Below, in pieces: positions 2,538-64,000 of a stretch of 64,000 nt of DNA (the stretch's first letter is position 1; every line of letters begins with the position of its first letter). Both the position numbers and the translations under genes were made by a program. The stretch lies in the UHGV virus genome UHGV-0042229. The stretch is one strand, 5' to 3'. Under the pieces are notes generated by a model. That model was not told where the DNA came from. It saw only the letters and a list, made by a program, of their open reading frames with translations, and searched no databases. The DNA is from a virus.

Positions 2538-2569
2538 ATTATGCCCGGCATCAACCGGGCATTCTTCCA

Positions 2570-3685
2570 TTATTCAGCCGCCACCGGTTTTAACAAGCCA
2601 GCATCGAGCAGTTTACGCGTCAACCACTGCTGGCCTTTACCCGTTAATTGAGGCGTCAACCGTATCTGGTAGCCATCTTCATCATCCAGCACCACTTCTT
2701 TCACCGTGAAATACCCCGCGTTGATGTACTGCTGGAACGGCACATTTTTACGTCCACCGGACGCTATCAGGATGCCGTTCTCCCGTAACCAGACAAACAG
2801 CGCGTTTTGCTTAAGTCCAACAACCTTTGCAAAATTCCCAATCAGGATCCCTTTAGCTACTGATACCCGGTCGGCAAAATCGACTTTAGGAGCGGCGGCC
2901 ACCAGCTGCTGATTTAGCTGGTGGGCTTTCTGTTCCAGAAGCTGCTTTTGTTCAGCCAGTTCGGCAGCCAGGCGCAGAGCTTCTGGAAGCGTCTGGGGGA
3001 TTGCAACCGGTTGCTGTTCTTTTTGCCGGAAGTAGCTGTCTTCCAGTTTTTCAAAGAATGCCCATGCCTGATCGGTTTCGAGCATTTTAGCGTGGCGGGC
3101 TGCGCCGCGTTCCGTCCAGAGGATGAGTGAGCGGGCTTTAGGAGAGATAGGATTTTGTGAGTTACTTAAAGTCACCCGCAAATTGTTCAAATCATCTCCA
3201 ATAACTTTATAGAAATGCTTACCTTCACAAAAACGTTCAGCATTACGGGAAAAGTTCTTCTTGATGTTATCCGCATCTGTCCCATACCCCTTAGCAAGGA
3301 TCTTAGTTGTCACTACACGCACTCCCTGCCACTCTAGAACGGGAATTTCATCCGGCTGACTTTGAACAACCACCAGTTCTGATTCCTGAACTAAAGGTGT
3401 ATTAATTTTTTCAGATTTAACGTTAGTAGCTTTCATTCTGTGTGCCTCCTTGCGTGTTTCGGCTGCGACGGTTGCGTAATTCAGATGCCCCTGTTCGAGC
3501 AGGTATTCACGGATATCAGACAGCAGGATACGGTGAACAGCGTTCTTGTCCTTTCTCCGGTAAAGTTGTTTGGTGATCATGAAGTAGTTGGCAATAACGC
3601 CAGGTATATCCCTGGTACTGATACAGGCAGTGTGCTGTTCAATTGCCTCGATCATCTCTTCACGGGTAACTAACGATGTTCTCAT
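2570..3685 (-). CDS. Antirepressor-like protein (371 aa), second ant copy
   Basis: N-terminal ~90 aa and C-terminal ~130 aa (PQTLPEALRLAAELAEQK...GNFAKVVGLKQNALF...QIRLTPQLTGKGQQWLTRKLLDAGLLKPVA) closely resemble the immI Ant at 50874-51917; central domain differs. ATGA overlap with upstream icd-like ORF. Confidence 0.75.
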   Translation of the reverse strand: MRTSLVTREEMIEAIEQHTACISTRDIPGVIANYFMITKQLYRRKDKNAVHRILLSDIREYLLEQGHLNYATVAAETRKEAHRMKATNVKSEKINTPLVQESELVVVQSQPDEIPVLEWQGVRVVTTKILAKGYGTDADNIKKNFSRNAERFCEGKHFYKVIGDDLNNLRVTLSNSQNPISPKARSLILWTERGAARHAKMLETDQAWAFFEKLEDSYFRQKEQQPVAIPQTLPEALRLAAELAEQKQLLEQKAHQLNQQLVAAAPKVDFADRVSVAKGILIGNFAKVVGLKQNALFVWLRENGILIASGGRKNVPFQQYINAGYFTVKEVVLDDEDGYQIRLTPQLTGKGQQWLTRKLLDAGLLKPVAAE

Positions 3686-3903
3686 AGTCCCTCCTGAGCA
3701 GAAGCGTTAACAGGGAGGCACCAGTAACTGAGAGAATTGCGTGAATCAGTGGAAAAACGGGCAGAGAAAATACATGGGGCGTCAGGAAGCTGAGAGCGGG
3801 CCTCATCTTCTGTCGGTGCAATAACGAAGTGATAGTGACGTTTTTGGCAGGAGTAAAAGCGCCAGATAAATTCAGGATGAGTTGGGGTAGGGATAGTAGC
3901 CAT
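3682..3903 (-). CDS. Icd-like protein (73 aa), second copy
   Basis: From ATG at 3903 with AGGAGG RBS: MATIPTPTHPEFIWRFYSCQKRHYHFVIAPTEDEARSQLPDAPCIFSARFSTDSRNSLSYW..., highly similar to the 73-aa icd at 51914-52135. The track ORF 3682-4131 is an in-frame upstream extension. Confidence 0.6.
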   Translation of the reverse strand: MATIPTPTHPEFIWRFYSCQKRHYHFVIAPTEDEARSQLPDAPCIFSARFSTDSRNSLSYWCLPVNASAQEGL

Positions 3904-3959
3904 ATTGGCAGCCTCCTTAGACGTTGGTATGTAACCACCGCAGAAGAGACCAATCTTGC

Positions 3960-4050
3960 TGGCGGTGGACTGTACGGAGTTGGCCTTACTGGCGTCCAAG
4001 GTAACCAGCCTACCCGAAGGTAGCCCCATACAGCCCACCATTGTAGAGGT
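3960..4050 (-). ncRNA. Putative c4-like antisense RNA of the second immunity module (approximate bounds)
   Basis: Segment aaccagcctacccgaaggtagccccatacagcccaccattgta parallels the presumed c4 region aaccagcaggccgaagcctccccatcacgccccaccataattt upstream of icd at 52226-52270; flanking loop sequence differs. Confidence 0.3.
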
Positions 4051-4063
4051 GTGCGTGTACGCC

Positions 4064-4097
4064 GATACAAAAAAAAGACGCGAGCGGCGTCTGTATC
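4064..4097 (-). terminator. Rho-independent terminator downstream of pacB
   Basis: On the minus strand: stem gacgccgctcgcgtc followed by T8 (A-run 4069-4076 on plus), with outer gataca/tgtatc pairing. Confidence 0.6.
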
Positions 4098-4222
4098 GCC
4101 TTAGACTTAAGCGGGAGGCCAATCCCGGCACCCGTTTTAATGAGGTGCCTGATAAGCATAAACCGAAAATGCCTCAAGGCGCAAGAGGTCAGGTTCAATG
4201 TAACATCGGCAGTCAAAAAACA

Positions 4223-4239
4223 CAATTTATTAGAGCAAG
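4223..4239 (-). promoter_or_regulatory. C1 operator-like site just downstream of pacB stop
   Basis: caatttattagagcaag, 15/17 to reverse-complement consensus. Confidence 0.55.
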
Positions 4240-4242
4240 ATT

Positions 4243-5727
4243 TTACTCATTAAGCCATGCCAGAGCTTCATCAACCTGCGCTTCGTCTTCGACGCTAAGC
4301 ACTTCATCCTGGGGAACATAATCCGCCAGCATAGCGAAACAATATGTATCCCAATGGTCTGGTGAGTGCAGGTTGAGTTTTTTCTTCATATCCTCCTTAC
4401 TCATCACCTTCCATTGACCTGCGGAGTTAATCCCTACAGGGATTTTCGACGCTTCCTCAATAGTTTCATTACCCTTATCCAGTCTCATACGACCAGATTT
4501 TACGGCCTCTGCGGCTTGAACGTTGGCATAAGCACGTTTATCAAAGTACAGGCTCTTATCTTCACGGCTATGCATCTTTTTACCCCAGCGTATACGCTGT
4601 ACGGTAATACCATAATACTCGTACATCAGATCCGCCGTTGCTTTACCCAGGCCATCGCCGTCTATCGCTATGGTGATATTTGGGAATCGCTCAGGATTAC
4701 ATTCTGCGAAAATTTTGGCGGCAAGCTGCGTTTCTGTAACGTCTGTGTATTCCAGCATTCGATAGTTGATTACACGGCGTTTATTTCGCTGGCCGGACAC
4801 CATCATGATATTGATAACGGACTTATCCCGTCCCGTACCACCAGCAACGTCCACACATGCAAGCCAGCCCCATCCTTTTGCAATCTTGACTTTCCGCCGC
4901 GTTGCACGTTCAACCTCATCACGTCCAAGAAGGAAGCCATCCTGTGATTTAGGGAATAGGCCGCGTACCTTAATCATGTACATAGGGTTATCGCGCCCGC
5001 CGTACTCCGCCAGCTTCATTTTGATAAATGCTGGCGTTACCAGCGGTGATTCCTCACTGTTAAGCGTGATCGCCGTATAAACGCCATCAGGGTTACCAGG
5101 ACGCTTGGCCAGTTTATGGTGTGTATCGTAGAAATAGCCGCTTGGGCGTGTAGGCTGTGACAGCAATAAGATGCGGTTATCCTGTCCGGTAAGAGCACCG
5201 GTGATGATACCGAAAGCTCTATCACTGACACCGGAGGCTTCATCGATAATATACAGAAGATGATCTGCGTGTTCACCGGCGAGAGCTTCTTCACTTCCCA
5301 GACGAAAGCCCTTCGGTACTACAGTCCATACACCTTTACCAGTAACCTCATAGAAAGCGGTTTCTGTCAGAACAAAATAATCAGCAAGCCATGGAAAACG
5401 GCTGGTGGCAGTAGCCCAGTTTATCTTGATGTACTTGAATATACCGGTCATTACCTGCTGAATTTTGTTCGCAACGATAATGGCTCGGGCACCGGGATAC
5501 ATGATTATGAACAACATGATCATGATAGAAGTCATGTCTGATTTCCCGGTACCGTGGCCAGACGAAACAGATGTCTTGCTACCCTGTTCCTGCACAGACT
5601 CAATAATCAGATCCTGCTGCCAGGTAGGTGTTTTGCCGAACAAAACATCAGCGGCCGCAATCCAGTCATAACGATATAGCGCCACCAGCTCGCGCCAACG
5701 TGGATCCGTTACGCAACTTCTGGCCAT
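4243..5727 (-). CDS. pacB: Terminase large subunit PacB (494 aa)
   Basis: 494-aa ORF immediately downstream of and overlapping pacA; size and position as P1 pacB. Confidence 0.9.
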
Positions 5728-6920
5728 TAATCATCATCCCCGTATAGCTTGCGGGTAACTTCTTCGTCTTCCTCCTCGTCTTCGTCCAGGTCTTGTTCCA
5801 GCCATGGTTCGTTTGATACACCTTCAGTATCAACATCTCCATAACCGCCTGTATCAACGATATCGGCGATTTCTTCCCTACGCTGCTCAATCCACAATGC
5901 GGCATCGGCGCGGCGGTTGGCGGCCCGTTCTCGCGCAACTTTGTCCAGATCTTCAAGAGAAGGGCCACCGACGGCTGTTTGCCTTTCCTCATCATCGGTA
6001 TTGGTCTTCGGAGCACGCAGATCGGCTTTGATTTGCTCCAGCATCAGGGGCGGCACTTTCCCGCCATGCGCCTCGATGAATTCAGCTGCTTCCAGCACTG
6101 ACCAGTTATTTTCACGCTTTCGTTCGTATGCCAGCTTAACAATGCCAGCTTGCCCCATAGACAAAGCGTGCTTTTCCGCCTCCCGGCTTTCTTTTCGATA
6201 GTTATTCCGGATGCTGTAAATGGTGTTGATCAGGCTGCTTATCTGCGCGGAACAGCTGTTTAGCATGCTCGCGATACGATATTCAGGCGGAGTCCCTTCA
6301 TCATCGTCTTTTTGCTGATCGCGCATTTCCTGCACCAGACGAATACACGTATCCCTGGCATTCTCCAGCATAAGGAGATGAGAAAGAGACTTTTCCAGAA
6401 GAGTGGTTTCCAGAACATCGGCCCCGGACCGACGCAACATAGCGCGCGCGGCCTTCCGCGCTTCAACGTTATCTATCAGGTAATCGCCAGCTTCGAATTC
6501 AAAGCGTTCACCATCATCATCCAGGGTGTCGCGTTCCAGGCGATCACGTAAGGTCCGGTGGGCGCGGGTGATCACGTCATGATCATCAGAACGATCATTT
6601 ATGCGCTTATTTTGGCGCTTCGCATTCTCGACTGCGGCACTGACAACGGCATTAACCCTTTGTTTTTCCGCTATTTCAGCCGCAATGTGATCACCTGCAT
6701 GTTGATCATTAGAGTGATCAATGATCATGCTTTTTAGTGGCTTCCTGACTGGCTTATTTGGCTTGCGGCTGTCCGCTGTCCTGGTGTCTTCTTTGAAGGC
6801 ACGGAGATAACGACGTGCAGTATTAGGGTTAAGATTAAACTCGGCGGCATACTGTGCGATGGTGTAACCACCATCTCGCGCCAGGCGAGCAAAATTCTTC
6901 TTGTGATCGTCCCAGGTCAC
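5727..6920 (-). CDS. pacA: Terminase small subunit / pac-recognition protein PacA (397 aa, GTG start)
   Basis: 397-aa ORF with acidic C-terminus; contains the pac hexamer clusters near its 5' end; AAGGAAG RBS upstream of GTG. Confidence 0.9.
6569..6727. other. pac: pac packaging site (Dam-methylatable TGATCA/G hexamer clusters) inside pacA
   Basis: Four TGATCA at 6688-6693, 6703-6708, 6715-6720, 6722-6727; opposite cluster TGATCA 6569-6574, TGATCA 6580-6585, CGATCA 6592-6597. Matches the 4+3 hexamer architecture of P1 pac. Confidence 0.7.
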
Positions 6921-6955
6921 TTATGCTTCCTTTCGTAAAAACTCTTTTTGACGCG

Positions 6956-6978
6956 AGGGTAACGAAAGTCACATGTCA
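6956..6978 (-). promoter_or_regulatory. Late-promoter-like motif upstream of pacA
   Basis: Minus strand reads tgacatgtgac-tttcgt-TACCCT: same box...GTGAC, 6-nt spacer, TANNNT arrangement as the three plus-strand sites; about 30 nt upstream of pacA start. Confidence 0.45.
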
Positions 6979-7005
6979 AAAGGCCCGGAACGGGCAAGCA
7001 ATCAA

Positions 7006-7458
7006 TCAGATACGTGCGGATGTGGCATTACCGTAATGACGGTGCTGACGGGCCACCTTATTGAAAAGTTGACGCGCCATTACCCAAGGCTGGTGCTCCC
7101 GGCGTTCCTTTTCGTCCTGCGTCATATAGAGTTCGTTCTGGAGTTTTTCATCAAACCGGCGCGGAGCGCGGCTACGGCGAAAGAATTCAGGATTCAGAGA
7201 GTGGATCTGAAATCTACGTGGGCGTGTACTGTCATCAATCAAAACAGACGAATACTTAGACACAGCGATAGCCTTTAAGCGCAGATAAACATCGCGCTTA
7301 TCGACATCCAGATGCGGGTATTCCTTTTCAAGAATTGCTGCGAGTTCTTTCGCTGATAGAAGAGATTTAGTGCGGATCATGTAATCCGCAATCTCGTACG
7401 ATGTTATTCGTGAGTGATTTATTTCCATGAAGTGGCGTCCCTGCCAGTTAAGTAACAT
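7006..7458 (-). CDS. lpa: Late promoter activator Lpa-like protein (150 aa)
   Basis: 150-aa ORF immediately upstream of pacA in P1 gene order, preceded by a C1 operator-like site. Confidence 0.6.
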   Translation of the reverse strand: MLLNWQGRHFMEINHSRITSYEIADYMIRTKSLLSAKELAAILEKEYPHLDVDKRDVYLRLKAIAVSKYSSVLIDDSTRPRRFQIHSLNPEFFRRSRAPRRFDEKLQNELYMTQDEKERREHQPWVMARQLFNKVARQHRHYGNATSARI

Positions 7459-7528
7459 CCTGTCACCTACTGATTAGCCCATGTCAACTAATCAACGTGG
7501 AATATAATACCCTCGATTAAAGAAATAG

Positions 7529-7545
7529 CAATACATTAGAGCAAT
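7529..7545 (-). promoter_or_regulatory. C1 operator-like site upstream of lpa
   Basis: caatacattagagcaat, 14/17 to reverse-complement consensus. Confidence 0.45.
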
Positions 7546-7546
7546 T

Positions 7547-8590
7547 TTACCTAACACTCGACGAGTGACTTGTGATAGCGCCGACTCCAAGCGCGTAATC
7601 AAAGAACAATCGTTGATGCATCGCCAGCCTACCGTGCGTCTTCTCCCAATTATCGCGGTCACGCTCAATATCACGCTGGCATGACTGGCACAGAGGAATT
7701 GCGTAAATGTCATGCGCGCATAATCGACTATGACGAACGATATAAGGCGTAATGTGAGCGCCAGCTCCCGCCGCTCCACACCCACAGCATGGACGGGAAG
7801 CAACAAAGTCCATGTACTCAGGTAATTTTAGCGATTGCAGTTTTGGTATTTTGAAATGCGCCATGCCAGGGTCGGAGTCAACATCCACAGGGCATACTTT
7901 TGCACGCATCGGCGCGGCGCGTTCTTCCATCATCTGGACATATGCTGTAGCGCGATCGTCATACGGGCGAATATCCGCCTCTTTCAGAGGTCCGCTATCC
8001 TGCGTTGCGGCTTTCATCTTATTTATTGATATACGGTAAACTTCTTCCGGCATCAGGTGCATCATGTTGCGCATGAAAGCCCACCAGCACAGTTCCTGAA
8101 TACTTAAATCATGGCCATCTGAAAGCCCCATTTCCTGACGGGCGACATCCAGTATCCAGTTAACGCGATTATTATGCAGCGTTTCTTTCAGCTCATTAAA
8201 ACCACGCATCCGGTAATGGTTATCGTGATGCCAGCACAACAACACCGCGCTCTTGTCTCGTTCAGCGTGGACAATATGGTTGTCACACCAACTACGATCT
8301 GCGGCCTGGCATTGCCCCTCTTTCCTGCGCAACCACGCCACCAGCGCGTCAATTCCACCAATACGGCGAAACAGTTCATCGCTGTTAAAAAACGGCTGCA
8401 ACGCCTCATTTGTTGCCATAGTTTGCTCGGAAAAAACGAGGCCGTCGTCCATGTGCTCGATTAACTCACGCGGCACCGGCTCCATAATAAATTTACGGCC
8501 AGCCTCCACCAGCTTTCTGACTTCCTGATCCACTTTGAATGTGGCGACGCCAAGCTCTTTTTGTACAAAGGGAGTAATTACGGCTTTCAC
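7547..8590 (-). CDS. Hypothetical protein (347 aa), Cys-rich C-terminus; pdcB position
   Basis: ORF track; C-terminal CCGCG...H...C..CQSCQ cluster suggests zinc-binding, possibly HNH-like; sits downstream of doc as in P1. Confidence 0.55.
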
Positions 8591-8617
8591 ATCACACCTT
8601 TCATCACTGATTGGGCT

Positions 8618-8797
8618 TTATCTGCTGCCCGGCATTCTCTGTTTAAGCACAACCATTTCCTGACGGCATAACACAGCAATAGCGGTCCTGGCACCAATTT
8701 GCTTACCAACCAGGTATTGCTTTACCTCGCTGCGACTCACGCCATCAAGAAGCATCTTTAACGCTTCACGGGACAATTTGTTGTATTTGCGTGCCAT
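8618..8797 (-). CDS. Hypothetical small protein (59 aa from internal ATG)
   Basis: ORF track 8618-8818 trimmed to MARKYNKLSREALKMLLDGVSRSEVKQYLVGKQIGARTAIAVL...; possible small DNA-binding protein. Confidence 0.35.
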   Translation of the reverse strand: MARKYNKLSREALKMLLDGVSRSEVKQYLVGKQIGARTAIAVLCRQEMVVLKQRMPGSR

Positions 8798-8801
8798 TAA
8801 T

Positions 8802-9182
8802 CTACTCCGCAGAACCATACAATCTACGTAACGTGTCGGCGACAGAAGATACAGATATCTCTCCGGTCGCAGCCCCTACGGTAAGGTCTGCCAGTTCAGG
8901 TGAATCAAATACCTGCACCCCGTTACGGCGTAGAAATAACAGCGCACTGTTTAGCGCGGTACGCTTATTGGCATCATTGAATATATGCCCTCTCGCTGTA
9001 GCCACCAGGTAGGTGGCGGAGACTTCGAAAAGGTCGGTGATCTCTTCGTAGGCAACTCTGGCCTGAACTCTCCCGATAATGGCCTCTGCCCTACCCGGAT
9101 CTGACATTCCCGGCAGGCCGCCGTAGCGGTTTATATTCGCATCATGAAGCGCAATAAGTTCTTCCGGTGATATATGCCTCAT
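8802..9182 (-). CDS. doc: Doc toxin (Fic/Doc family, 126 aa)
   Basis: 126 aa, [39 protein letters not shown]...[11 protein letters not shown]..., overlapping phd stop. Confidence 0.93.
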
Positions 9183-48401: not shown

Positions 48402-48557
48402 TTACCTTTCAGATTCGTAGGCTGTGAAGACAGTGACCTCCGTCTGGCCGGTTCGGATTCGTACCTCGCAGAGGTCTTTCCTCGTTACCAGTGCCGTCAC
48501 AATGACGGTTAAACAGATGACGATCAGAGCGATTAACATCGCTTTTTGCTGCTTCAT
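48402..48557 (-). CDS. Hok/Gef-family type I toxin (51 aa)
   Basis: MKQQKAMLIALIVICLTVIVTALVTRKDLCEVRIRTGQTEVTVFTAYESER, near-identical in pattern to E. coli Gef (MKQHKAMIVALIVICITAVVAALVTRKDLCEVHIRTGQTEVAVFTAYESE). Confidence 0.75.
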   Translation of the reverse strand: MKQQKAMLIALIVICLTVIVTALVTRKDLCEVRIRTGQTEVTVFTAYESER

Positions 48558-48615
48558 AGCCTGCTTCTCCTTGACCTTTTGGTCGGTAAGAGGCTAATCT
48601 ACGTATGCTAAGCAT
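48409..48615 (-). CDS. mok-like overlapping reading frame (68 aa)
   Basis: Track ORF in a different frame covering almost all of the hok-like gene, as mok does in hok/sok loci. Confidence 0.4.
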   Translation of the reverse strand: MLSIRRLASYRPKGQGEAGYEAAKSDVNRSDRHLFNRHCDGTGNEERPLRGTNPNRPDGGHCLHSLRI

Positions 48616-48738
48616 AGATATGGCCTCAGATTAATGTTAAGCGTCTTGCAGGACGCGTAATGTTATCTGGGGCTTTCTTCTATCTGCTTTTCGGGTAATG
48701 CCTGAAGCAGATAGCCTCAAGCACCCGCAACGATTGTA

Positions 48739-52135: not shown

Positions 52136-52194
52136 AGTTACGGCCTCACAATCAGGTTTAACAACCTGCTACCCGCTGCTAAACAGGTGGCAGG

Positions 52195-52300
52195 ACGTGA
52201 CGGGGTTAGCAGACTGGCGATTGTGAAACCAGCAGGCCGAAGCCTCCCCATCACGCCCCACCATAATTTGGGCGTAACGCAGTTTTACGGACACAAAAAT
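52195..52300 (-). ncRNA. c4: Putative c4 antisense RNA region (approximate bounds)
   Basis: Between operator and icd; direct repeats gctgctaaac at 52175-52184 and 52344-52353 (candidate targets) flank a segment whose transcript carries the complementary ctgctaac (plus strand gttagcag, 52205-52212). Exact ends not determined. Confidence 0.4.
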
Positions 52301-52449
52301 ACCGCAATATCGGATATCTGCGGCTGTCCGCACAATCATTCAGGCTGCTAAACCCGGTCGCAGAATTTGCTACGACGGCGAAACTATAAGCCTGAACGAT
52401 TAAAAGGTCAATATGATGCAAAAAGATAGCATTCGCGACTTAAAAATAC

Positions 52450-54469: not shown

Positions 54470-55081
54470 ATGGGGCTTAATGTTGCTTCAGTAAAGTCTT
54501 ATGTATCTTCGGCATTAACGACGACATTATTTGGCTCCGGCGTTGGTGAGCGGGAAGTTGGTAAGCTGACGTCAATCATCATGAACAAAATGCTGTTCGC
54601 GCAAGGATGGCAGTTCTCTGTCGAAGTTGATGGTCTGGAAGGGGCAGACTTCTTTGCTAAAGACATTACCTACCACGATTACAGCATCGAATATGAAACG
54701 ATTAAAATCGGCGGAGGGAATATCCTTCAGCCAACGGAGCGTTCGCCTGGGCAGATAACAATGATGGTCAGGGATACCGTTGATGGCCTCGTTTTGGACT
54801 GGTTTAAGACGGCAAAAGGTCGGGTGATCAATCCGGACGGTACCGGGAATATACCGTCTAAATATTTGCTCAATGTGCGTATTTATCGGTTGCTGTCCTC
54901 CGGTTTAACCAAACTGGAAAATGAGATGACGGTATTCCCGGTCACTACCGGCGATGTCACCTATGCGCGGGATCAGGTTACGGAATTTAAGTCATTCCCA
55001 ATGACCTTCGCATTGCACAGCACGTTTAACCAATCCTCAAGTTCTTTAGCTTCCCTTCTGGGCTTTAGTTTTTCTCTTTGA
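54470..55081 (+). CDS. Putative tail tube-like protein (203 aa)
   Basis: ORF track; position between late promoter and sit; assignment weak. Confidence 0.4.
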   Translation: MGLNVASVKSYVSSALTTTLFGSGVGEREVGKLTSIIMNKMLFAQGWQFSVEVDGLEGADFFAKDITYHDYSIEYETIKIGGGNILQPTERSPGQITMMVRDTVDGLVLDWFKTAKGRVINPDGTGNIPSKYLLNVRIYRLLSSGLTKLENEMTVFPVTTGDVTYARDQVTEFKSFPMTFALHSTFNQSSSSLASLLGFSFSL

Positions 55082-55095
55082 ATTAAGGAGCAAGG

Positions 55096-55977
55096 ATGCT
55101 TTTACCTCTTTTCCCGCTACCATCGCGGCCAACTGAATTGATCCAGTTCCGTCAGCCAAATATTGCTGATGCGATGCGTTTCAACTCGATAACACCGGAG
55201 GAACAAGAACAACAGACAACGGCGTATTTAAAAGTCTTGCTGGCTGAACCCGCGAAATATGATCCCCTGACATGGACGGCGCAGGACCGGATTACCGCGT
55301 TATGGTGGATATTTACTGGCTCCCGTGAAACACCGGTCGAGACATTCACCTACACCTGTAAACATTGCGGTAAAGAGCATTATTACGATTGCGATATGAA
55401 TGCTCTGGCTGAAGATATCCAGGTCCTGGAAGTGGAACCGTTCATTGACGATATTGAGGTGTCTGTAGAGGGCGTGCCTTATCAATGGCGTATCGTGCCG
55501 CTTGATGGTTGGGCAATGGAAATGCTGGAGATGCGCCGTGCAGCATTGCCACCTGAAGACGACGCGGAATTCAAAGAAGCGATCGTTGATTTGCGTTTTT
55601 GGGAATTCGCTTATCAGTGTGAACTTTATAACGATGTTAGCGGTACTCGTGAAGAGCAGGCTGAGCGTCGTTATGAAACGATCAAACGGATGGCCATTGA
55701 TACTGAATTTATGAAGCTGGCGGCACACATCCGGCTGGCTCATGAAAAGCTCGAACATGGTTTACCGTGCTACATCGATAAAGGCGAAATGCGTCTTCGT
55801 CTCCCGCCGCACAAATGCCCAAACCAGGATACAAAGGAGTCCACAGAGGGTGCGTATACCCGTCTGTGGGTGCCCTTTCGGGCTACCGACTTCATTCCAC
55901 AGGTGGGGATTGAAAAGCTATCAGACCTTAGTGTCCAACCTGGTTTTGTATGGGGGTATACCGATTCAGGACGCTGA
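55096..55977 (+). CDS. Hypothetical late protein (293 aa)
   Basis: ORF track; CxxC...C pattern (CKHCGKEHYYDC). Confidence 0.5.
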   Translation: MLLPLFPLPSRPTELIQFRQPNIADAMRFNSITPEEQEQQTTAYLKVLLAEPAKYDPLTWTAQDRITALWWIFTGSRETPVETFTYTCKHCGKEHYYDCDMNALAEDIQVLEVEPFIDDIEVSVEGVPYQWRIVPLDGWAMEMLEMRRAALPPEDDAEFKEAIVDLRFWEFAYQCELYNDVSGTREEQAERRYETIKRMAIDTEFMKLAAHIRLAHEKLEHGLPCYIDKGEMRLRLPPHKCPNQDTKESTEGAYTRLWVPFRATDFIPQVGIEKLSDLSVQPGFVWGYTDSGR

Positions 55978-56058
55978 AAGGCTCACTGAATCCTATGCGT
56001 TTTTCCTGTTGGAGAAACTGGAAGAAAAACTTAAACCGAAGCGGTAGGCGATAAGATC

Positions 56059-59000
56059 ATGGAAAGAAAAAACGCCAACATTGACGATGTGATAAGGACG
56101 GTTGAAACCGCCAGCGCAAAAGAGCTGGAAGAGCTTGCAGGTATTCGGGAAGCCGTTGAAGATTTGAAAGGGGGGCGAGTTGCTACAGTTGATCCTGTCT
56201 CTCGCAGTGTGTCGGCATTAAATCGCACAATCGAAAATTCCCGGCCAGACTTTGTGGCCAATGCGCCATCAGTGGACCCTATTGTTGAGGCAATGAAACG
56301 GCTTAATTTAGGGGACGTTTCTCGTGTAGTTCAGGAGGATGTTGCTCTACAGGAACCGCAGGCCAAATCAACTACGCGAAAGGGTAAAAAACGACGCAAG
56401 AAGGCTATAACAGAAGATGTAAAGGCGCAACGGACCGAAGCAGCCGAACACGCTCGCGAAATGTTCGGTCAAAAAGGCGGTGCGCAAAAAAGCCAAAACC
56501 AACGCGATGCGCGTGGTCGTTTTATTGGAAAGTCAGGGAGTAAGGCCGCAGCGGAAGATGCCCGTGCTGAACGTGCTGAAAAGGCTAGGCGCAAAGAGGA
56601 TGATGAGCGTCTAAATGCTGAATCAGGTTTATTAAAAAAACTGTCAAAAGTAGCTGAAGGCATAGGTAACCCTTCAGAGACTCGTGCCGTCGATGCGTTA
56701 GGTTATGCCGTTGCTGGTCCATTGTGGGCAGCAGGGAAGGAGCTTGGCGGGATATCAAAAGAAGTTGGTGGATCGCTTAATGGTGCCAGAAAGTCTATTG
56801 CCGATGTGATTCGTGGCAATGACGATAACAGCCGTAGAAAAGGTTTTTTTAGGCGTAAATCGCAAAATAGTGCCGATGTCGTTCAGGTTAACACCCAAAA
56901 ACGGACGGTTCAGGAACTTCAGGAGCAGACCAGCGAAATTAAAGAGGGCAATGACAAGATTCTCCGCGCCCTTGATCAGATAGCCAAAAACACCGGGAAA
57001 AAGAAGGGCGGCTTGCTGTCCAAACTATTTAGCCTGTTAGGGAAGGGGGCCGGTGGCGTCGCGTCGTTGTTAATGGGGCGTGGCATGCTGAAAAAAGCTG
57101 GAGCACTCGCTTTTGGCGCTCTGGGGGCAAAGAAACTTGTAGGAATGCTACGCGGTGGTGGCAAGAAGACTCTCGCCCATGAAGGCGGAGATTTGGCTGC
57201 CCGGGCAGCAGGTAAACTTGGATTAAAGGCAGTTGGTAAAGGGGCGTTACGCGCAATTCCCCTAGTCGGCACAGTGGCTGGAGGTATTTATGATGCGGTA
57301 ACCGGTTGGAATGATACAGAAGCGCAACGTCGAGCGTTTGGGCTTAAATCAGGACAAGATCCATCATTCCAGCAAAAAGCCGCTTATACGTTAGCTAATG
57401 TTCTTGATATGGGGGGACTGGTATCTGGTATTAGCAGCGCCATTGGTGAGGTTCTCAAATCACTTGGATTTGAGGATATCGGCAATATGTTGCAATCATT
57501 TTCGACGGAAAGTATTGCCCAGGCCATTGATAGTGGGATTACCAACTTAGAAACATATATTTCTAACCTTGGCGACACCATTTCTACCAAGTTCGATGAT
57601 TACACAGCAAAGATTGGTGATGCTGTTTCAGCATGGTTTAGCGATACATCTAATAAGCTGCTTGAAAAGCTGGATGCCATCAAAGACTTCTTTACTGTCG
57701 ATAACCTGAAACAGGTTTTCAGTGATGCAATTGATAGTGCAATTGATTTCATTAAGAACCCAGGGAAACATATTAAAGAGGCGGCTGGTAATATTTGGGA
57801 TGGGGTTAAAAATTTCCCCGGTAAAGCATTAGATGCAGCGGTTGATGCCGTTAAAAATACCCCTGCGGCAATGATTGTATCAAAAATACCCAATCCGATC
57901 GGCGAGGCTAATGCGAAAGAAATCACTCCAGAGTTAAAAGCTCCGGTTAATAGCCACCAGGAGACATCTGATTCTAAAACTGAATCCGATGCCAAACAGA
58001 CTAATATTGTTACCCGCGTGATAAATGCGGCACTGGACACGGCGAAAGATAGCAATAAAACAGTTAAAGAAACTGCTAATCAGATTATCAATGCAAATGC
58101 CGTAGAAACGGGCAATAGCGCGTTGCAGAAAATTGATAAAGCTATTGGTCAAAATAGCTCGTCATCATCGTCGCTTAATACCACTGGCACCAGGAATGAC
58201 ATTCAGAAAGCTGCGGATACCTACAACAATGGCAACTTGGATGTAAAAGTCGGAAGTCTTGGCGCTGAAGGTAAGGCAAATCTCGATAAGTTGGCTCCGT
58301 ATTTTGCCGAACTAGAGAATAAATACGGTCTTCCAGAAGGCACTCTTTACGCGATTGCTGCAACTGAATCTGGTGGTAATCCGTATGCAAAATCCCAAAC
58401 CGGTGCTCTGGGGATGTTTCAGTTCACGGGGATTGCTCGTGAAGAGACTGGCTTAGCTGAAGGTGAATCGTTTGATCCTGTGAAATCGGCAGAAGCTGCG
58501 GCTCTTCTCATGAGCAAATATCTGAAGCAAGCCAATGGAGACTTAAACGAGGCCATCACTGCATATAATGCTGGGTTTGGCACTATCAATAAGTGGAAAA
58601 AAGGCACAGGTGACTTATCGAAAGAAAACCGTGAGTACGCGATCAAGGTCAATACTCATCGTGCTCGCTATTTAGGTGGTGAAATCTATACACCTGGAGC
58701 AGGAGCACAGGGTGGGGCGCAATATGGAGTGAGGGGACCACTGCCTGATAACGCTGTTATCGATCAGTCTACTGGCCTGGCGTTTACCCCTGGTGATAGC
58801 CCGTTTGAGAAAGGCGGTCTGGTAGACAAAATTGGCAATGCTGTTGGCGTTAACGATCTGGTCAACAAATTCATGAATGGCCGGGGTATGCGTCGGGAAG
58901 TCGTTCAGGGAACGCTCGAAGAACGTGCACGAGGGAAGGGGACCGCAACAGCAGCTGGCAATGTGTATGTTGATACTCCGATGCCAGTTGAAGAGGCGCG

Positions 59001-59451
59001 TCCGGTGGCCAGCAACTCAAGTTACTTTGACCAACTCGGCGCACAAATGGGGATTGATGGACTATTTGATAAACTCCGCAACTCGCCGGGGATGCGGAAA
59101 AATAATGCGCCTGAACCAGCCTCCACGTCCCAGGTGACGACTGCCGCCAACGATTTGCAGCAACCAACCGGTCGTATGCAGATAGACGGACAGGTTATTA
59201 GTGACCTTGGCGGCTCCGGTGCCAAGCCGACAATGCAGTTGGCTGATAATACCGTTTCACTTGATGGTGAAACGAAGCGGCTGTTTGCGCAGATGACCTC
59301 ATTGCTTGCCAGGATTGAAGAGCACACTAAAGACTCGGCGAAAGGCCAGGGAACTGTCGTAAAGGTCAGCACGCCTCAACCGGGCGTTATGCGCACGGTG
59401 CCACTGTCAATTGATGATCCGTTGATGAATGACTACGCGAGAGTTGATTGA
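56059..59451 (+). CDS. sit: Tail tape-measure-like protein with lytic transglycosylase domain (1130 aa), Sit-like
   Basis: SLT-like motif ...LYAIAATESGGNPYAKSQTGALGMFQF...; long Gly/Ala/Lys-rich repeats; position upstream of baseplate and fibre genes. Confidence 0.75.
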   Translation: MERKNANIDDVIRTVETASAKELEELAGIREAVEDLKGGRVATVDPVSRSVSALNRTIENSRPDFVANAPSVDPIVEAMKRLNLGDVSRVVQEDVALQEPQAKSTTRKGKKRRKKAITEDVKAQRTEAAEHAREMFGQKGGAQKSQNQRDARGRFIGKSGSKAAAEDARAERAEKARRKEDDERLNAESGLLKKLSKVAEGIGNPSETRAVDALGYAVAGPLWAAGKELGGISKEVGGSLNGARKSIADVIRGNDDNSRRKGFFRRKSQNSADVVQVNTQKRTVQELQEQTSEIKEGNDKILRALDQIAKNTGKKKGGLLSKLFSLLGKGAGGVASLLMGRGMLKKAGALAFGALGAKKLVGMLRGGGKKTLAHEGGDLAARAAGKLGLKAVGKGALRAIPLVGTVAGGIYDAVTGWNDTEAQRRAFGLKSGQDPSFQQKAAYTLANVLDMGGLVSGISSAIGEVLKSLGFEDIGNMLQSFSTESIAQAIDSGITNLETYISNLGDTISTKFDDYTAKIGDAVSAWFSDTSNKLLEKLDAIKDFFTVDNLKQVFSDAIDSAIDFIKNPGKHIKEAAGNIWDGVKNFPGKALDAAVDAVKNTPAAMIVSKIPNPIGEANAKEITPELKAPVNSHQETSDSKTESDAKQTNIVTRVINAALDTAKDSNKTVKETANQIINANAVETGNSALQKIDKAIGQNSSSSSSLNTTGTRNDIQKAADTYNNGNLDVKVGSLGAEGKANLDKLAPYFAELENKYGLPEGTLYAIAATESGGNPYAKSQTGALGMFQFTGIAREETGLAEGESFDPVKSAEAAALLMSKYLKQANGDLNEAITAYNAGFGTINKWKKGTGDLSKENREYAIKVNTHRARYLGGEIYTPGAGAQGGAQYGVRGPLPDNAVIDQSTGLAFTPGDSPFEKGGLVDKIGNAVGVNDLVNKFMNGRGMRREVVQGTLEERARGKGTATAAGNVYVDTPMPVEEARPVASNSSYFDQLGAQMGIDGLFDKLRNSPGMRKNNAPEPASTSQVTTAANDLQQPTGRMQIDGQVISDLGGSGAKPTMQLADNTVSLDGETKRLFAQMTSLLARIEEHTKDSAKGQGTVVKVSTPQPGVMRTVPLSIDDPLMNDYARVD

Positions 59452-59807
59452 TGGCCAACAATAACGAAATTGATCCTTTGCTGACGCTGGAGTTATCCGG
59501 CGTAAAAACGTATGAGTCCCAGGAGGAGGCCTGGGGCGCTCGTTTATATGAGTGGCTAAACACTTATCAGGGTGAGGTATACGGAGATCCGTCATGGGGC
59601 AATGTTTTACCGCAGTTTAAACACGAACCGACCAACTTGTCGCATGTTCAAATTGCGGTTGAGGCAATGCTTTTGCAAAAACTGACGGTAGATTTACCCG
59701 ACATACCGATTTCTGGCTTGTCAGTAGCCGAGGGAGATGCTTTTGATAAGTTGAAAATATCCATTCGTATCAGGGATATAACTATCACACAGGACGTGGT
59801 GCTATGA
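59448..59807 (+). CDS. Hypothetical morphogenetic protein (119 aa)
   Basis: ORF track; start overlaps sit stop (ATGA). Confidence 0.5.
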   Translation: MMANNNEIDPLLTLELSGVKTYESQEEAWGARLYEWLNTYQGEVYGDPSWGNVLPQFKHEPTNLSHVQIAVEAMLLQKLTVDLPDIPISGLSVAEGDAFDKLKISIRIRDITITQDVVL

Positions 59808-61237
59808 GTAAAACAACACCTACTAAAGACAGTATTCGTGCAGAGTTTGAAGAGCTTGTCGAGAAAGATTCATTCTGGTCGAAGTTTGTCGGCTCTCAAT
59901 TTGTCTCGATGCTGACATTGTTTATTACCCAGATTGTCTACAGGTGCTTTCAGTATGCCGATGCGGCGCTGGCTGAAGGCTTTATATCGACCGCGACGCG
60001 GCGTTCTTCTATCCTGGCAGCGGCAGAAACGAATAGTTACGTTGGTACCAAGCCAACACCGTCATCGGGGATGATTGAGATCACCGCCACAAGTGAAGAT
60101 GCCCCAGCGGTAATCCCCAAAAACATGCCTTTAATATCTGACGACCAGTATCCTTACATGACTATGGATGTATGCAGGTTGGTTGACGGCACCGGTACGG
60201 TAGAAGTGGCACAGTTGGAAATCCAGGAGGTGACATATACCGTTACGGCAGCCAAAGAATTTCTGGAAGTCGTGTTATCAAAGGCTCTCACTGCTGTCTG
60301 CTATAAGCTGGAAGTATTCGTGACGACCGATGGTAAGACCACGCAGTGGTCTTCCAGCACTATGTTCCGGTTAGCCGGTAGTAAAAGCCAGGTCTACGTT
60401 GAGTTTTATAAACCATCCGAGCAGTTGGGGGTTCGATTCGGTGATGGGCTAATTGGGCAAATACCGCCAGAAGGCTCGACCATTACGCTTAAGGTATGGT
60501 GCACCAACGGCGATATAACCCTGGTTGCTGGCCAAAACCTGACGCCTGTCGATTCTGCGGCTAATTTAGCTAATTTGATTTCAGTTAAGACAACGACACC
60601 TATAACCGCAGGTACCGATGCCGAAACAACGGAGATCACACGTAACCGTGCACAATATTACCTTGCCTATGATGATCAGGTCGTATGGGGCGGGGACTAT
60701 ACGTATTTTCTGGTGCGTAACATCCCGGGACTGTCCTGGGTAAAGGCATGGGGCGAAGGCCAGCAAGAGAAATTAGATGGTGCTTATAATGTTCGGAATA
60801 TCAATAAGATATTTATTTCAGGATGGCATCCAAACAAAAGCCAGTCAGAGCTTGAAGAAATGATCCTGGCTGCCTTTAAGAAGGTGCCGAATGAGTTGAA
60901 CAAGAAATTCTCGTATAAAGAGGTCAGAAAACTCCCCTTTAAGATCACCATCACTGGGCGGATATCGGCAAGCCTGACCATTGAGAACGTGACTGATGAG
61001 CTGAAGTCGGCACTGGAAACAAAATTTGGGCGTGACTCAACTTTCTTTGATCCGAACCGTGTCGGCAAGTACATCCTAATCAAGAAAAAAGACGTTTGGG
61101 CATTTATCGAAACGCTGGGTTATTTCCGCGACTTTTATCTGGAATTTGTCGAGTGGAATGAGTCCAACGGCTTTTACGATTTCGTTTATCTGGATACAGA
61201 AAACTCCACCTTTAATATTTCGTATGAGGAGGAGTGA
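59804..61237 (+). CDS. Putative baseplate protein (477 aa), BplA-like
   Basis: ORF track; overlapping start/stop with neighbours. Confidence 0.55.
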   Translation: MSKTTPTKDSIRAEFEELVEKDSFWSKFVGSQFVSMLTLFITQIVYRCFQYADAALAEGFISTATRRSSILAAAETNSYVGTKPTPSSGMIEITATSEDAPAVIPKNMPLISDDQYPYMTMDVCRLVDGTGTVEVAQLEIQEVTYTVTAAKEFLEVVLSKALTAVCYKLEVFVTTDGKTTQWSSSTMFRLAGSKSQVYVEFYKPSEQLGVRFGDGLIGQIPPEGSTITLKVWCTNGDITLVAGQNLTPVDSAANLANLISVKTTTPITAGTDAETTEITRNRAQYYLAYDDQVVWGGDYTYFLVRNIPGLSWVKAWGEGQQEKLDGAYNVRNINKIFISGWHPNKSQSELEEMILAAFKKVPNELNKKFSYKEVRKLPFKITITGRISASLTIENVTDELKSALETKFGRDSTFFDPNRVGKYILIKKKDVWAFIETLGYFRDFYLEFVEWNESNGFYDFVYLDTENSTFNISYEEE

Positions 61238-62073
61238 TGCAGCGTTCCTGGTTTAATAACCGGCTTACATCAGCTAAGCAAAAGTCATTGCTCTATAAAT
61301 CATTGGCTGATTTGGTTCAGTCAATGATGGATACCTTTGTTGACCCATGGTTGGAGCGAATTACCAACCGGAAGTCTATTTTTTCCATGAGCAAGGAGGA
61401 TCTGGAGACTAGGACAAATGAACTTGGCCAGTTTTTTACTATCAGAACGTCGAATTCATCTTCCGTTCCGATGTTGTTACAACAGCGGTTTGATGAGATC
61501 CATTTTAAGGGTACTGAACGCCCTATAAACCAGACAATTTATCGCGAATTTAACGGTATATCGGTTTTATGGGATCCCATATATGCTCCGGTGGACTTTG
61601 AACGTCATCCCTATGGCACGGTCCTGATTCCAGAAAGCACACTGGAAACCACCGGCGGCACATTCGGCGAGATGTTTCTGACTTCCAGAGGAATGATCAG
61701 TATTCCCATAAACGACCTGGCCCGGACAATGGGTATTACTGGAACGATAGATCAGTCCGCAATTACAGAAGAAATTCTCAGAAAGTTTAATCAGTTCGTA
61801 AAGCCTCTACTGCCACTGCATATAGTGTTTGATGGGCTTACGCTCTATTTGTCGGTTGTTGTAAATGAACAGGCCGACATGATCACTTTGAATGAGATTT
61901 CTGATACCGAAAAAGCATTCTGCTGGTTTGAAACTTCGGATACAACTTCGCTTACTGAAGTTACGTCGATTAACGCCCCGATCACTGCAACGCCGGGCGG
62001 CACTATTGTGAAAGCAACGCCTACGTTTGATCGCACCCGCGCAGATGATTTGCTGTTGGATAGCGATGCGTGA
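61234..62073 (+). CDS. Putative baseplate / fibre-attachment protein (279 aa), gene 16-like
   Basis: ORF track; ATGA overlap with upstream gene; GC-rich hairpin 62077-62101 downstream. Confidence 0.5.
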   Translation: MMQRSWFNNRLTSAKQKSLLYKSLADLVQSMMDTFVDPWLERITNRKSIFSMSKEDLETRTNELGQFFTIRTSNSSSVPMLLQQRFDEIHFKGTERPINQTIYREFNGISVLWDPIYAPVDFERHPYGTVLIPESTLETTGGTFGEMFLTSRGMISIPINDLARTMGITGTIDQSAITEEILRKFNQFVKPLLPLHIVFDGLTLYLSVVVNEQADMITLNEISDTEKAFCWFETSDTTSLTEVTSINAPITATPGGTIVKATPTFDRTRADDLLLDSDA

Positions 62074-62151
62074 CAATCACCCCGTCCGCAGGGCGGGGTG
62101 ACAAGTTACTTATCTTACAATGAGGCTTCACAACATTGATTAGGGAAAATC

Positions 62152-62586
62152 ATGTCTGACGTCTCAACAAACCTCTATAAGAGTCAGTTGTTGGACTATT
62201 ACTATCAGCGGCGCGCTGAATCGTCCATTAACAAAGGCTCTCGATTTTTAATCAGCAAGGCCGTTTTCGGTACCAGTTCACTGGTTACTAAGAAAGGAGA
62301 TGGCACTTATGAGATTGGAGAACTGCCAAAGGCTTTCGATCTGGCAGAACTGACCAGTCAATTTTGCACCATCAACCTCGTCCCAACCTACTCAGGCGGG
62401 ATAATTACTGTCCGAATGGACCTTGATCAAAGTCAGTTGCAGGAAGGGAAAAACTACCCATTCAACACTCTGGTTGTTCTGGATAACGAGAATAAGCCAA
62501 TCGCCATTATTTGTGTCCAAGAAGACTCGCTGTATGTGGGCAAAACATATACCGCAGTTATGGCCATAAACTCGACTACAGCATAA
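62152..62586 (+). CDS. Tail fibre-associated protein R-like (144 aa)
   Basis: 144-aa ORF immediately upstream of the fibre gene, as P1 gene R. Confidence 0.55.
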   Translation: MSDVSTNLYKSQLLDYYYQRRAESSINKGSRFLISKAVFGTSSLVTKKGDGTYEIGELPKAFDLAELTSQFCTINLVPTYSGGIITVRMDLDQSQLQEGKNYPFNTLVVLDNENKPIAIICVQEDSLYVGKTYTAVMAINSTTA

Positions 62587-62597
62587 GGATATGCTTG

Positions 62598-64000
62598 ATG
62601 AATGACGTTACAGTTGTTACATCGGTTACTTACCCATCACCCGAGTCGTTGGCTCTGGTGGCTGATGTGCAATACCACGAACCATATCTGTCAGCCGCTC
62701 TAAACCGAAAATTCAGGGGAATTGTTGACCCGGGATTTTATGCTGGTTTCTTGCCTAAGCCTGGCGGTGGAATGAACCTGTTAATCACCTCAGTGGATGG
62801 AGATAAAACCGCTGGCGCGGCGTCAGTGGATATTGGTGAATTCTACCAGGTAACTATTCAGCATCGTAAGGATATCTCTCTTGCACTTAACGCAGGCAAG
62901 AAATATGCAATTGTGCTGAAGGGAAGATACCTTCTTGGAGAAGATACCTATCAGGTGAATACCGCGTCACATATTCATGCAGCTGAATTTGTTGCCAGAA
63001 CCTATACCGATTCATATCAGTTAGGTGATGGGGAACTGCTGGTTTGTACGGTGAATATCCCTGCTGGCGTATCTACCATTACTCAAGAGATGATTGATAC
63101 ATCCGAGCGTATCAACCGCACGATCGGCATTGATATTTCAGACTCTGTAACCAGTACCAGAAGTGATGTTGCTGCGAGTTCGCTGGCAGTTAAAAAAGCC
63201 TACGATCTGGCGAAAAGCAAGTATACGGCGCAGGATGCAAGCACAACGCAAAAGGGATTAGTTCAGCTCAGTAGTGCCACTAACAGTACGTCCGAAGTGC
63301 TGGCCGCCACACCGAAAGCTGTCAAGGCTGCATATGACCTGGCTAACGGGAAGTATACAGCCCAGGATGCAACCACGACACAAAAAGGGATAGTTCAGCT
63401 CAGTAGCGACACCAACAGCACTTCTGAAACATTAGCTGCAACTCCAAAAGCGGTTAAAGCTGCATACGATCTAGCAGCCGGAAAGGCACCATCCAGTCAT
63501 ACACATCCCTGGAATCAGATCACTGGTGTGCCAACAGCTTCATTGACAGCGAAAGGCATCACTCAGCTCAGTAGTGCCACTAACAGCACGTCCGAAGTGC
63601 TGGCCGCCACACCGAAAGCTGTCAAGGCTGCATATGACCTGGCTAACGGGAAGTATACAGCCCAGGATGCAACCACGGCTCAAAAAGGGATAGTCCAACT
63701 CAGCAGTGCTACCAATAGCACGTCCGAAGTGCTGGCCGCCACACCGAAAGCTGTCAAGGCTGCATATGATTTGGCTAATGGAAAGCAAGCGGCAGACGCT
63801 ACGCTCACTGCTCTAGCGGCACTAGCTACAGCAGCAGATAAACTCCCTTATTTCACAGGTGTTGATCGTGCCGCGTTAACTGCATTGACAAGTGTTGGAC
63901 GCGCCATTCTTGGTAAGACCAGTATTCAGAGCGTTCTTGATTACCTTGGTTTAGGGGAAGGCTCGGCGCTGCCCGTTGGTGTACCTGTTCCATGGCCCTC
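62598..64000 (+). CDS. Tail fibre protein S, N-terminal ~467 codons (continues past window end)
   Basis: ATG at 62598 with AAGGA RBS; open to window end; four copies of a ~40-aa fibre repeat (T(A/T)QKGxVQLSSxTNSTSExLAATPKAVKAAYDLAxGK). Not in ORF track because truncated. Confidence 0.8.
   Translation, partial: MNDVTVVTSVTYPSPESLALVADVQYHEPYLSAALNRKFRGIVDPGFYAGFLPKPGGGMNLLITSVDGDKTAGAASVDIGEFYQVTIQHRKDISLALNAGKKYAIVLKGRYLLGEDTYQVNTASHIHAAEFVARTYTDSYQLGDGELLVCTVNIPAGVSTITQEMIDTSERINRTIGIDISDSVTSTRSDVAASSLAVKKAYDLAKSKYTAQDASTTQKGLVQLSSATNSTSEVLAATPKAVKAAYDLANGKYTAQDATTTQKGIVQLSSDTNSTSETLAATPKAVKAAYDLAAGKAPSSHTHPWNQITGVPTASLTAKGITQLSSATNSTSEVLAATPKAVKAAYDLANGKYTAQDATTAQKGIVQLSSATNSTSEVLAATPKAVKAAYDLANGKQAADATLTALAALATAADKLPYFTGVDRAALTALTSVGRAILGKTSIQSVLDYLGLGEGSALPVGVPVPWP
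63264..63677 (+). repeat. Near-identical 114-bp direct repeats inside the fibre gene (63264-63377 and 63564-63677), plus a 49-bp third copy at 63721-63769
   Basis: The two 114-bp copies differ at one position and lie exactly 300 bp apart. Confidence 0.8.

Follow-up and report, generated by a model that had tools for sequence, protein, structure and literature searches.

Tail-fibre repeats of the family PF03406 (Phage_fiber_2, phage tail fibre repeat) are found not only in gene S of P1-like phage-plasmids, but also in S of Mu, H of P2 and Stf of lambda. The constant parts (Sc) of gene S in P1 and p15B are reportedly mosaics of partially related repeats made by amplification, an account said to have been given by Sandmeier, Iida and Arber in J Bacteriol in 1992, and homology with the fibre genes of Mu, P2, lambda and T4 is said to have been noted in the same work. 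Here we describe the repeat array in gene S of the virus genome UHGV-0042229, of which a stretch of 64,000 nucleotides (nt), referred to as the window, was analysed. Based on the repeats themselves, their recent homogenisation, exact recombinant products, and copy-number differences on near-identical backbones of related elements, it is very likely that homology-dependent exchange between repeat cores of one type (A) leads to the gain or loss of entire shaft modules without a change of reading frame, giving fibres with the same attachment domain and tips but different shaft lengths.

In the P1 records (GenBank M81956 and AF234172), the repeated elements a0, a1, b1 and b2 are already annotated within Sc. 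The Sc of the window is similar to that of P1 in the gene concerned, its position, the 132-base-pair (bp) periodicity of the 'a' repeats and the presence of a0 followed by a first 'a' unit. However, in P1 and P7 there is one full 'a' unit and then two 222-bp 'b' elements (APIESPSLTGTPTAPTAAQGTN…), whereas the 'b' elements are absent from S of the window, where units of the order A-B-A-T stand in their place. The array is an extension of the repeat mosaic already known in P1 and p15B, the likeness to p15B being drawn from notes in the P1 GenBank record. In other phages with PF03406 repeats the DNA copies within a gene are well diverged, whereas here two copies are near-identical and the copy number is polymorphic.

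Two more distant systems are also relevant in this regard. In the fibre genes of T-even phages, according to the parts of PMC3157838 that cite Tetart et al. (1996, 1998), recombination occurs at conserved motifs, and duplications in gp37 of T4 expand the host range. As far as that source describes them, the T-even genes resemble the present one in that short conserved or repeated motifs serve as crossover points for the in-frame duplication or swapping of segments; however, the T4 duplications described there are in the receptor-binding adhesin domain and were experimentally selected, whereas those considered here are in the shaft, upstream of a switchable tip. In Pseudomonas tailocins, discrete classes of fibre length coexist in a natural population and correlate with the killing spectrum (bioRxiv 10.1101/2023.04.17.536465). 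However, the tailocin fibres belong to a different protein family and a different host, and their haplotypes have lasted for over a hundred years; in the present case, by contrast, the copy number differs between near-identical backbones. In the literature searched, no description of a copy-number series in P1-like phage-plasmids was found.

The frame of gene S runs without a stop codon from 62598 to the end of the window (467 codons). The preliminary description of this DNA, which was made from its letters, had called it an S-like fibre gene, and its homology to P1 S is confirmed by the 95.3-96.2% identity of S nt 1-688 (229 N-terminal codons, corresponding to the baseplate-proximal domain) to the S genes of P1 and P7, as well as by the gene order sit, pmgA (pmgA/bplB), bplA, 16, R and S, which is the same in P1 and P7. 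The S region is also 99.4% identical over 1403 nt to an annotated tail-fibre gene of the plasmid NZ_CP123256.1. The constant part of the gene and its repeat units, whose lengths are given in amino acids (aa) and nt, are as follows.

62598-63946, + strand: constant part Sc of gene S, an open frame from the ATG at 62598; its end is the crossover point
63129-63245, + strand: a0, degenerate first fibre repeat (…IDISDSVTSTRSDVAASSLAVKKAYDLAKSKYTAQDAST), the first of five PF03406 stretches
63246-63377, + strand: unit A1 (132 nt, encoding 44 aa), with copy 1 of the direct repeat as its core (63264-63377)
63378-63545, + strand: unit B (168 nt, encoding 56 aa), in which a diverged core of the repeat is joined to the linker APSSHTHPWNQITGVPTASL (SSHTHPW)
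63546-63677, + strand: unit A2 (132 nt, encoding 44 aa), with copy 2 of the direct repeat as its core (63564-63677)
63678-63785, + strand: unit T, terminal repeat, 36 aa, leading into …KQAADATLTALAALATAADKLPYFTG

The array in the window is thus a0-A-B-A-T, in which the A units flank B, and A plus B make up a higher-order unit of 300 bp (100 aa). The match to PF03406 comprises five stretches (292.5 bits, E = 3.7e-89, against a gathering threshold of 22 bits). Of the four copies of a motif of about 40 aa that had been described earlier, the well-preserved A, B, A and T all stand, but the Pfam model adds to them a fifth, the degenerate a0 upstream, which is 64% identical to the next unit at an offset of 132 and overlaps the P1 element annotated as 'a0'. 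These repeats appear from their sequence to be structural modules of the shaft in the constant part of a tail fibre of the P1/p15B type. The SSHTHPW stretch of B may be reminiscent of the 'His boxes' of T-even phages. An antisense open reading frame (ORF) of 82 aa (63540-63788, - strand), which is internally repeated, lies wholly inside the array; it is most likely a by-product of the repeats and not a gene.

The direct repeat of 114 nt on the + strand (63264-63377 and 63564-63677, with a start-to-start spacing of 300 nt) is identical in its two copies at 113 of the 114 bases, and the coordinates and the single mismatch reported for it earlier are exact. The sole mismatch, T at 63287 versus C at 63587, is synonymous, as the codons AGT and AGC both specify Ser. 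When the 64-kb window was scanned allowing up to 3 mismatches, the 114-nt sequence was found at these two sites only; a match of this kind was not seen in any of 100 dinucleotide-preserving shuffles (chance expectation 0). The exact run extends one base further to the left, to 63263, and at an offset of 300 the identity changes in steps: it is 13/40 (33%) in the left flank, 114/115 (99%) in the core 63263-63377, 78/108 (72%) in the next 108 nt, and then 20/75 (27%). Stepped identity of this kind is typical of a conversion or crossover tract inside an older duplication. The 72% segment corresponds to the head of B (following A1) and the head of T (following A2), which are homologous, and the duplication that gave rise to the pair therefore predates the identity of the A tracts.

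The extent of this identity cannot be accounted for by constraint on the protein. While A1 and A2 differ in 1 of 38 codons, A and B, which have a near-identical core peptide, differ at 28 of 93 nt, with a synonymous change in 18 of the 27 codons that specify the same amino acid, and A versus B is thus close to saturation at synonymous sites. The core copies within one gene in unrelated phages carrying the same repeat family (viz. vB_YpM_39, PhiKM and vB_EcoM-613R2) differ at 13-36 of 87 nt, and the near-identity of A1 and A2 appears unusual for the PF03406 family on this comparison. Exchange has apparently also involved the terminal unit: exact-run analysis and alignment of the units show that the middle 53 nt of T (63717-63769) are exactly the same as 63585-63637 of A2, while the head and the tail of T are unique to it, a mosaic pattern that indicates a conversion or crossover tract. 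Taken together, the near-identity of the A cores, the older duplication and the T tract argue for homogenisation, by gene conversion or unequal crossing-over, which agrees with the recent duplication or gene conversion proposed in the preliminary description, except that one untouched duplication is not sufficient.

One alternative, viz. that a single copying of A1 gave rise to A2 in a locus that has otherwise been inert, derives some support from the one-base difference, which fits one recent event, and from the stability of the A-B-A-T arrangement over several records. However, this explanation is unlikely, because a duplication older than the A-tract identity, as required by the 72% identity of the flanking heads, and a separate identical tract of 53 nt shared by T and A2 are not expected from a single copying event. 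Further, the A alleles of related elements are mosaic, some of them carrying states of the T unit (the TT at positions 75-76), and many independent copy-number changes are found on near-identical backbones, as described below.

The comparison of gene S covered some 25 annotated records of plasmids and phages, together with 80 IMG/VR loci that were found by the N-terminal domain (individual loci are indicated by L numbers). Two classes of Sc are seen among the compared records. The majority are of the P1 type, in which a0 and a single 'a' unit are followed by the pair of 222-bp 'b' elements. The Sc of the window belongs to the second class, and it departs from P1 at about nt 688 of S, the point where the P1 record notes the end of the p15B homology. 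The arrays that retain the window-type T-head form the series AT, ABAT, ABABAT (L104), ABABABAT (L102) and ABAABAT, and those with a B-to-T junction form the series ABT and (AB)2T through (AB)5T. Other architectures include BT and the hybrids ABp and ABABAp, which run into b-type units; hybrids with b-type units are seen in the relatives L007, L015 and L023. The number of Pfam repeats is 2 in P1, 3 in AT, 5 in the window type, 8 in (AB)3T and 12 in (AB)5T, and the length of S across the relatives ranges from 493 to 974 aa. The number of differences between the A units within one genome is 0, 1 or 2 among the relatives. The four copies at equal DNA identity, by which an ancient fixed structure would be recognised, are thus not a common feature of related fibres, which differ both in the number of repeats and in their identity. 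The arrangement of the window, ABAT, is found in at least 8 other records, including four complete plasmids and four independent IMG/VR contigs, at 98.7-99.4% identity. The AT form is known from 2 RefSeq records of E. coli as well as from at least 6 records of PLSDB that originate from different laboratories, one plasmid being common to both collections.

The nearest relatives of B are the B-type units of the Yersinia phage vB_YpM_39 and of phage PhiKM. Shaft modules of the A, B, T and b types are found in these phages at about 78% nt identity (L099, vB_YpM_39, 1927-4281; L101, PhiKM, 1950-2909), in fibres whose N-termini are unrelated to that of S and alongside baseplate genes that are P2- or Mu-like. 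The junction …YLGLGEGSALPVGVPVPWP… of PhiKM is the same as in the window, an instance of fibre-module exchange across phage families. The matches to the Yersinia phage and to a Mu-like phage fit the mosaic account of 1992.

If whole modules are exchanged by recombination between the repeats, then the junctions of the variant arrays should correspond to crossovers within the homologous tracts. In the AT array of L006, unit-by-unit alignment shows the upstream junction of A1 combined with the downstream junction of A2, which is precisely what a crossover between A1 and A2 yields, with deletion of 300 bp. In ABT, the same type of alignment shows a unit with the head of A2 and the tail of T, the product of an A2 x T crossover within their shared tract, with deletion of 132 bp. 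In the expanded arrays that were checked copy by copy, (AB)3T and (AB)4T of L009 and L010, the A copies are 100% identical to each other and so are the B copies, while the T-head of ABABAT in L104 and of ABABABAT in L102 is still that of the window, apart from 0-1 differences. Among the B units, one marked by a G-to-E change occupies the third B position in L094 and the fourth in L093, both of which have (AB)5T arrays. As all of the units are multiples of 3 nt (132, 168 and 300), the expansion and contraction in frame that had been suggested from the window alone are found to be realised among its relatives, in the forms AT, ABT, ABABAT, ABABABAT and (AB)2-5T. The window-type T-head is unique, and a deletion can remove it but an expansion cannot create it; due to this, it is likelier that ABT descends from ABAT, or from some longer array of the same series, than the reverse. 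The B-to-T junction of PhiKM had suggested ABT as the ancestor, but this was rejected as the less simple path.

The tempo of these changes is indicated by the sequences adjoining the array. For a flank of 3.6 kb, extending from the 3' end of sit through nt 600 of S, four backbone clusters were recognised in which the differences within a cluster are 0-2 nt, and each of them contains several architectures. One cluster holds ABT, (AB)3T and (AB)4T, with ABAT one difference away; a second holds ABT and (AB)4T; a third holds ABT, (AB)2T, (AB)5T and ABABAp; and the fourth holds AT and ABAT. The occurrence of different architectures on near-identical backbones indicates that the copy number changes fast in comparison with point substitution, and that it has done so repeatedly.

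These observations can be brought together in the following manner. Homologous exchange, whether by gene conversion or by unequal crossing-over, perhaps together with replication slippage, would keep the two A units near-identical. Flanking B as they do, they would constitute a recombination substrate of 114 bp, and an exchange of A with A would lead to the in-frame loss or gain of the 300-bp A-B unit (100 aa), while an exchange of A with T would lead to the loss of 132 bp (44 aa). The outcome at the population level would be a family of fibres with a common baseplate-attachment domain and switchable tips, but with shafts of 3 to 12 repeat units. Either a RecA-dependent process or slippage could provide the enzymology, and the physical length of the fibre, and adsorption and host range with it, would presumably change.

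The possibility that the duplicated tract of the window, or the variant arrays of its relatives, have resulted from mis-assembly must also be considered, since short-read assemblies struggle with such loci, some 40% of the IMG/VR contigs stop at 690-1550 nt from the start of S, and frameshifts of 1 nt are present inside the array in L002 and L096. However, this is very unlikely as a general explanation. The arrangement of the window recurs in the four complete plasmids and four independent IMG/VR contigs noted above, its S frame stays open, and the site of the A1/A2 mismatch is polymorphic, with the T state also found in the first A unit of several relatives. Further, the expanded arrays are the opposite of the usual error, which is collapse, and the expanded, AT and ABAT forms are each backed by several independent records, those of AT being from different laboratories.

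It is more improbable still that the array is an ancient fixed structure, in which the identity of A1 and A2 is maintained by selection on DNA or protein and the copy number is stable. The PF03406 family and the A-B arrangement are indeed old, as is seen from the A-B of vB_YpM_39 and the B-B-T of PhiKM, both at about 78% nt identity, and ABAT has been found again in several records. However, the contrast at synonymous sites, which have nearly reached saturation in A versus B and have hardly changed in A1 versus A2, is not compatible with this explanation, nor are the 13-36 differences per 87 nt between the copies in other phages, and the wide range of copy numbers on near-identical backbones, as well as the unequal identities among relatives, directly contradict it.

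There are several points which weigh against the explanation by homology-dependent exchange between the A-type cores, or which restrict its scope. ABAT recurs unchanged in at least 8 other records, and the rate of change is accordingly not extreme. The variation is seen between consensus assemblies and not at the level of reads within this genome, and repeat collapse may have produced some of the short forms, ABT and AT in particular, where the assembly is a draft or is based on short reads. In these sequences the outcomes of unequal crossing-over, gene conversion and slippage are indistinguishable, and the effect of shaft length on adsorption or host range is one that we infer. In terms of structure, an AlphaFold2 monomer model of 63132-63998 was uninformative (mean predicted local distance difference test score 39, predicted template modelling score 0.19). 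The matches in a PDB sequence search were only to entries of the tail-fibre protein S of phage Mu (5yvq, 9ki1 and 8ju3), through a single repeat, and in a cryo-electron microscopy paper on Mu only the N-terminus of its tail-fibre S is modelled.

Downstream of the array is the region where the tip of the fibre is switched, for which two features are present in the window.

63934-63959, + strand: predicted crossover site for a Din-family invertase, TTCTTGATTACC/TTGGTTTAGGGGAA, aligning with cixR of P1, with the boundary of Sc and the variable part Sv at 63946/63947
63947-64000, + strand: start of the currently expressed variable cassette Sv, its first 54 nt, ending at the window edge

The inversion segment and the variable C-terminal part had been placed beyond the window in the preliminary description, and in this respect it needs to be corrected, as the crossover at 63946/63947 and 54 nt of Sv are inside. 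The sequence at 63934-63959 agrees with cixR of P1 (L011 5348-5373, crossover 5360/5361) at 20 of 26 positions, with the ACCTTGGTTTA core in common, and it is a predicted functional site for invertase-mediated crossover. In the relative L003, which is 99.4% identical, the Sv sequence runs on into a short tip with a Phage Tail Collar domain (PF07484), and each of the six cassettes checked directly there starts with …AACG/TTGGTTT(A/G)GGGGAAGG, which is exactly where the inverted homology begins. A doubt concerning the cixR-like site, that relatives have one full copy of it, was lifted by this result, since what the cassettes have in common with the site is its right half only, beginning at TTGGTTT. 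The closest relatives have at least 7 alternative cassettes for the tip, lying in both orientations, together with a serine recombinase gene (L003 5337-5362, 5834-7340 and 8780-9350), and by analogy their inversion region resembles the multiple inversion of p15B Min rather than the two-state Cin system of P1. In one of the (AB)5T relatives (L093, NZ_CP102949.1, about 5600-9142), the S frame enters a second copy of bplA (…FVSMLTLFITQIVYRCFQ…) immediately past the crossover site (YLGLG), with an additional R gene at 8708-9142; either there has been a duplication or a rearrangement at this site, or the record is misassembled.

The Min, Cin and Gin systems of p15B, P1 and Mu, respectively, switch the tip in a site-specific manner, whereas the shaft repeats form a separate and unprogrammed layer, which depends on homologous exchange. 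That the variation in the repeats is itself programmed, by the invertase (Min/Cin) or by a diversity-generating retroelement and not by general homologous recombination, can hardly be entertained even though the gene adjoins an inversion system that diversifies the fibre tip, because the one crossover-type site in 55000-64000 lies 150 nt downstream of the array and none lies within it, which gives the invertase no evident part in the changes of copy number, because all of the variant junctions are in long homology and none at a crossover-like core, and because the changes consist of whole units and of T/C, C/T and CC/TT polymorphisms that are not adenine-specific (the whole window was not scanned for a reverse transcriptase).

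Tail fibres determine which bacteria a phage or phage-plasmid enters, and P1-like phage-plasmids move antibiotic-resistance genes among Enterobacteriaceae. The present locus shows that, besides the known switching of tips, the shaft changes in steps of 44 to 100 aa between otherwise identical elements. If shaft length affects adsorption, this would provide a cheap natural dial of host range, for which an allelic series of 3 to 12 repeats is readily available. It is conceivable, though on present evidence rather doubtful, that the A-B array serves as a contingency locus for fibre length, with shaft modules of 44, 56 and 100 aa gained and lost often enough for mixed lengths to occur within one lysogen or lysate, and the variation between records on near-identical backbones agrees with this but does not prove it; if so, the array would constitute a second axis of host range (reach through O-antigen or capsule) beside the invertase-switched tips of the P1/p15B-type phage-plasmids. 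The S protein with an (AB)5T array has a length of 974 aa, similar to the 987 aa of P1 and 975 aa of P7, although the tips of the (AB)5T forms are much shorter, and this correspondence would fit selection on total fibre length.

A further consequence, of a practical kind, concerns the use of public sequences. Short-read assemblies break or collapse at the array and at the invertible cassettes next to it, because of which the fibre genes of P1-like elements are often mis-assembled or recovered as fragments, and the fibre genes of P1-like plasmids in public records are often fragments or pseudogenes. Among the IMG/VR contigs carrying the S N-terminus (L014, L016-L022, L026-L033 and others), about 40% end in or just after the array and the crossover site.

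The features upstream of S are the following, the order and sizes of the ORFs in the ORF list being the same as in P1 and P7.

56059-59451, 59448-59807, 59804-61237, 61234-62073 and 62152-62586: ORFs preceding S
62103-62121, + strand: late promoter LPs for R and S (-22 box AAGTTACTT, -10 TACAAT), identical to the annotated LPs of P1
62152-62586, + strand: gene R, 144 aa, tail-fibre structure/assembly protein, in position and size as gpR of P1 and P7

The LPs sequence corresponds to L011 3505-3523, the surrounding 101 nt have 3 differences from P1, and an Lpa-dependent promoter function is predicted for it from the P1 annotation. The bplA homologue (59804-61237, + strand) is named 'bleomycin hydrolase' by RefSeq in most relatives (homologues in L003-L010). 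Pfam identifies in it a baseplate wedge gp6-like domain and Baseplate_J, and the P1 annotation is baseplate protein BplA; the 'bleomycin hydrolase' name is probably a propagated misannotation.

Elsewhere in the window, Rfam identifies two genes for C4 antisense RNA, at 3958-4148 and 52183-52389 (both - strand), one with an adjacent isrK-like RNA and the other with an a1/b1 target element. Diverged direct repeats with 62-86% identity link both C4 regions (2580-3001/49923-50323/50884-51284 and 3713-3873/51945-52105), and what is seen here looks like a second immunity module of the immI type (c4/ant), P1 having, as far as is known, one such module. A full-length sok antitoxin RNA (48552-48726, - strand, 114.9 bits) would imply a hok/sok-type addiction module in a P1-like element. 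Three tRNA genes, all on the - strand (29200-29275, 30707-30782 and 30785-30860), are of the Met type (CAT), Thr (TGT) and Asn (GTT); this trio corresponds to that of P1, in which the CAT tRNA presumably reads Ile codons after modification.

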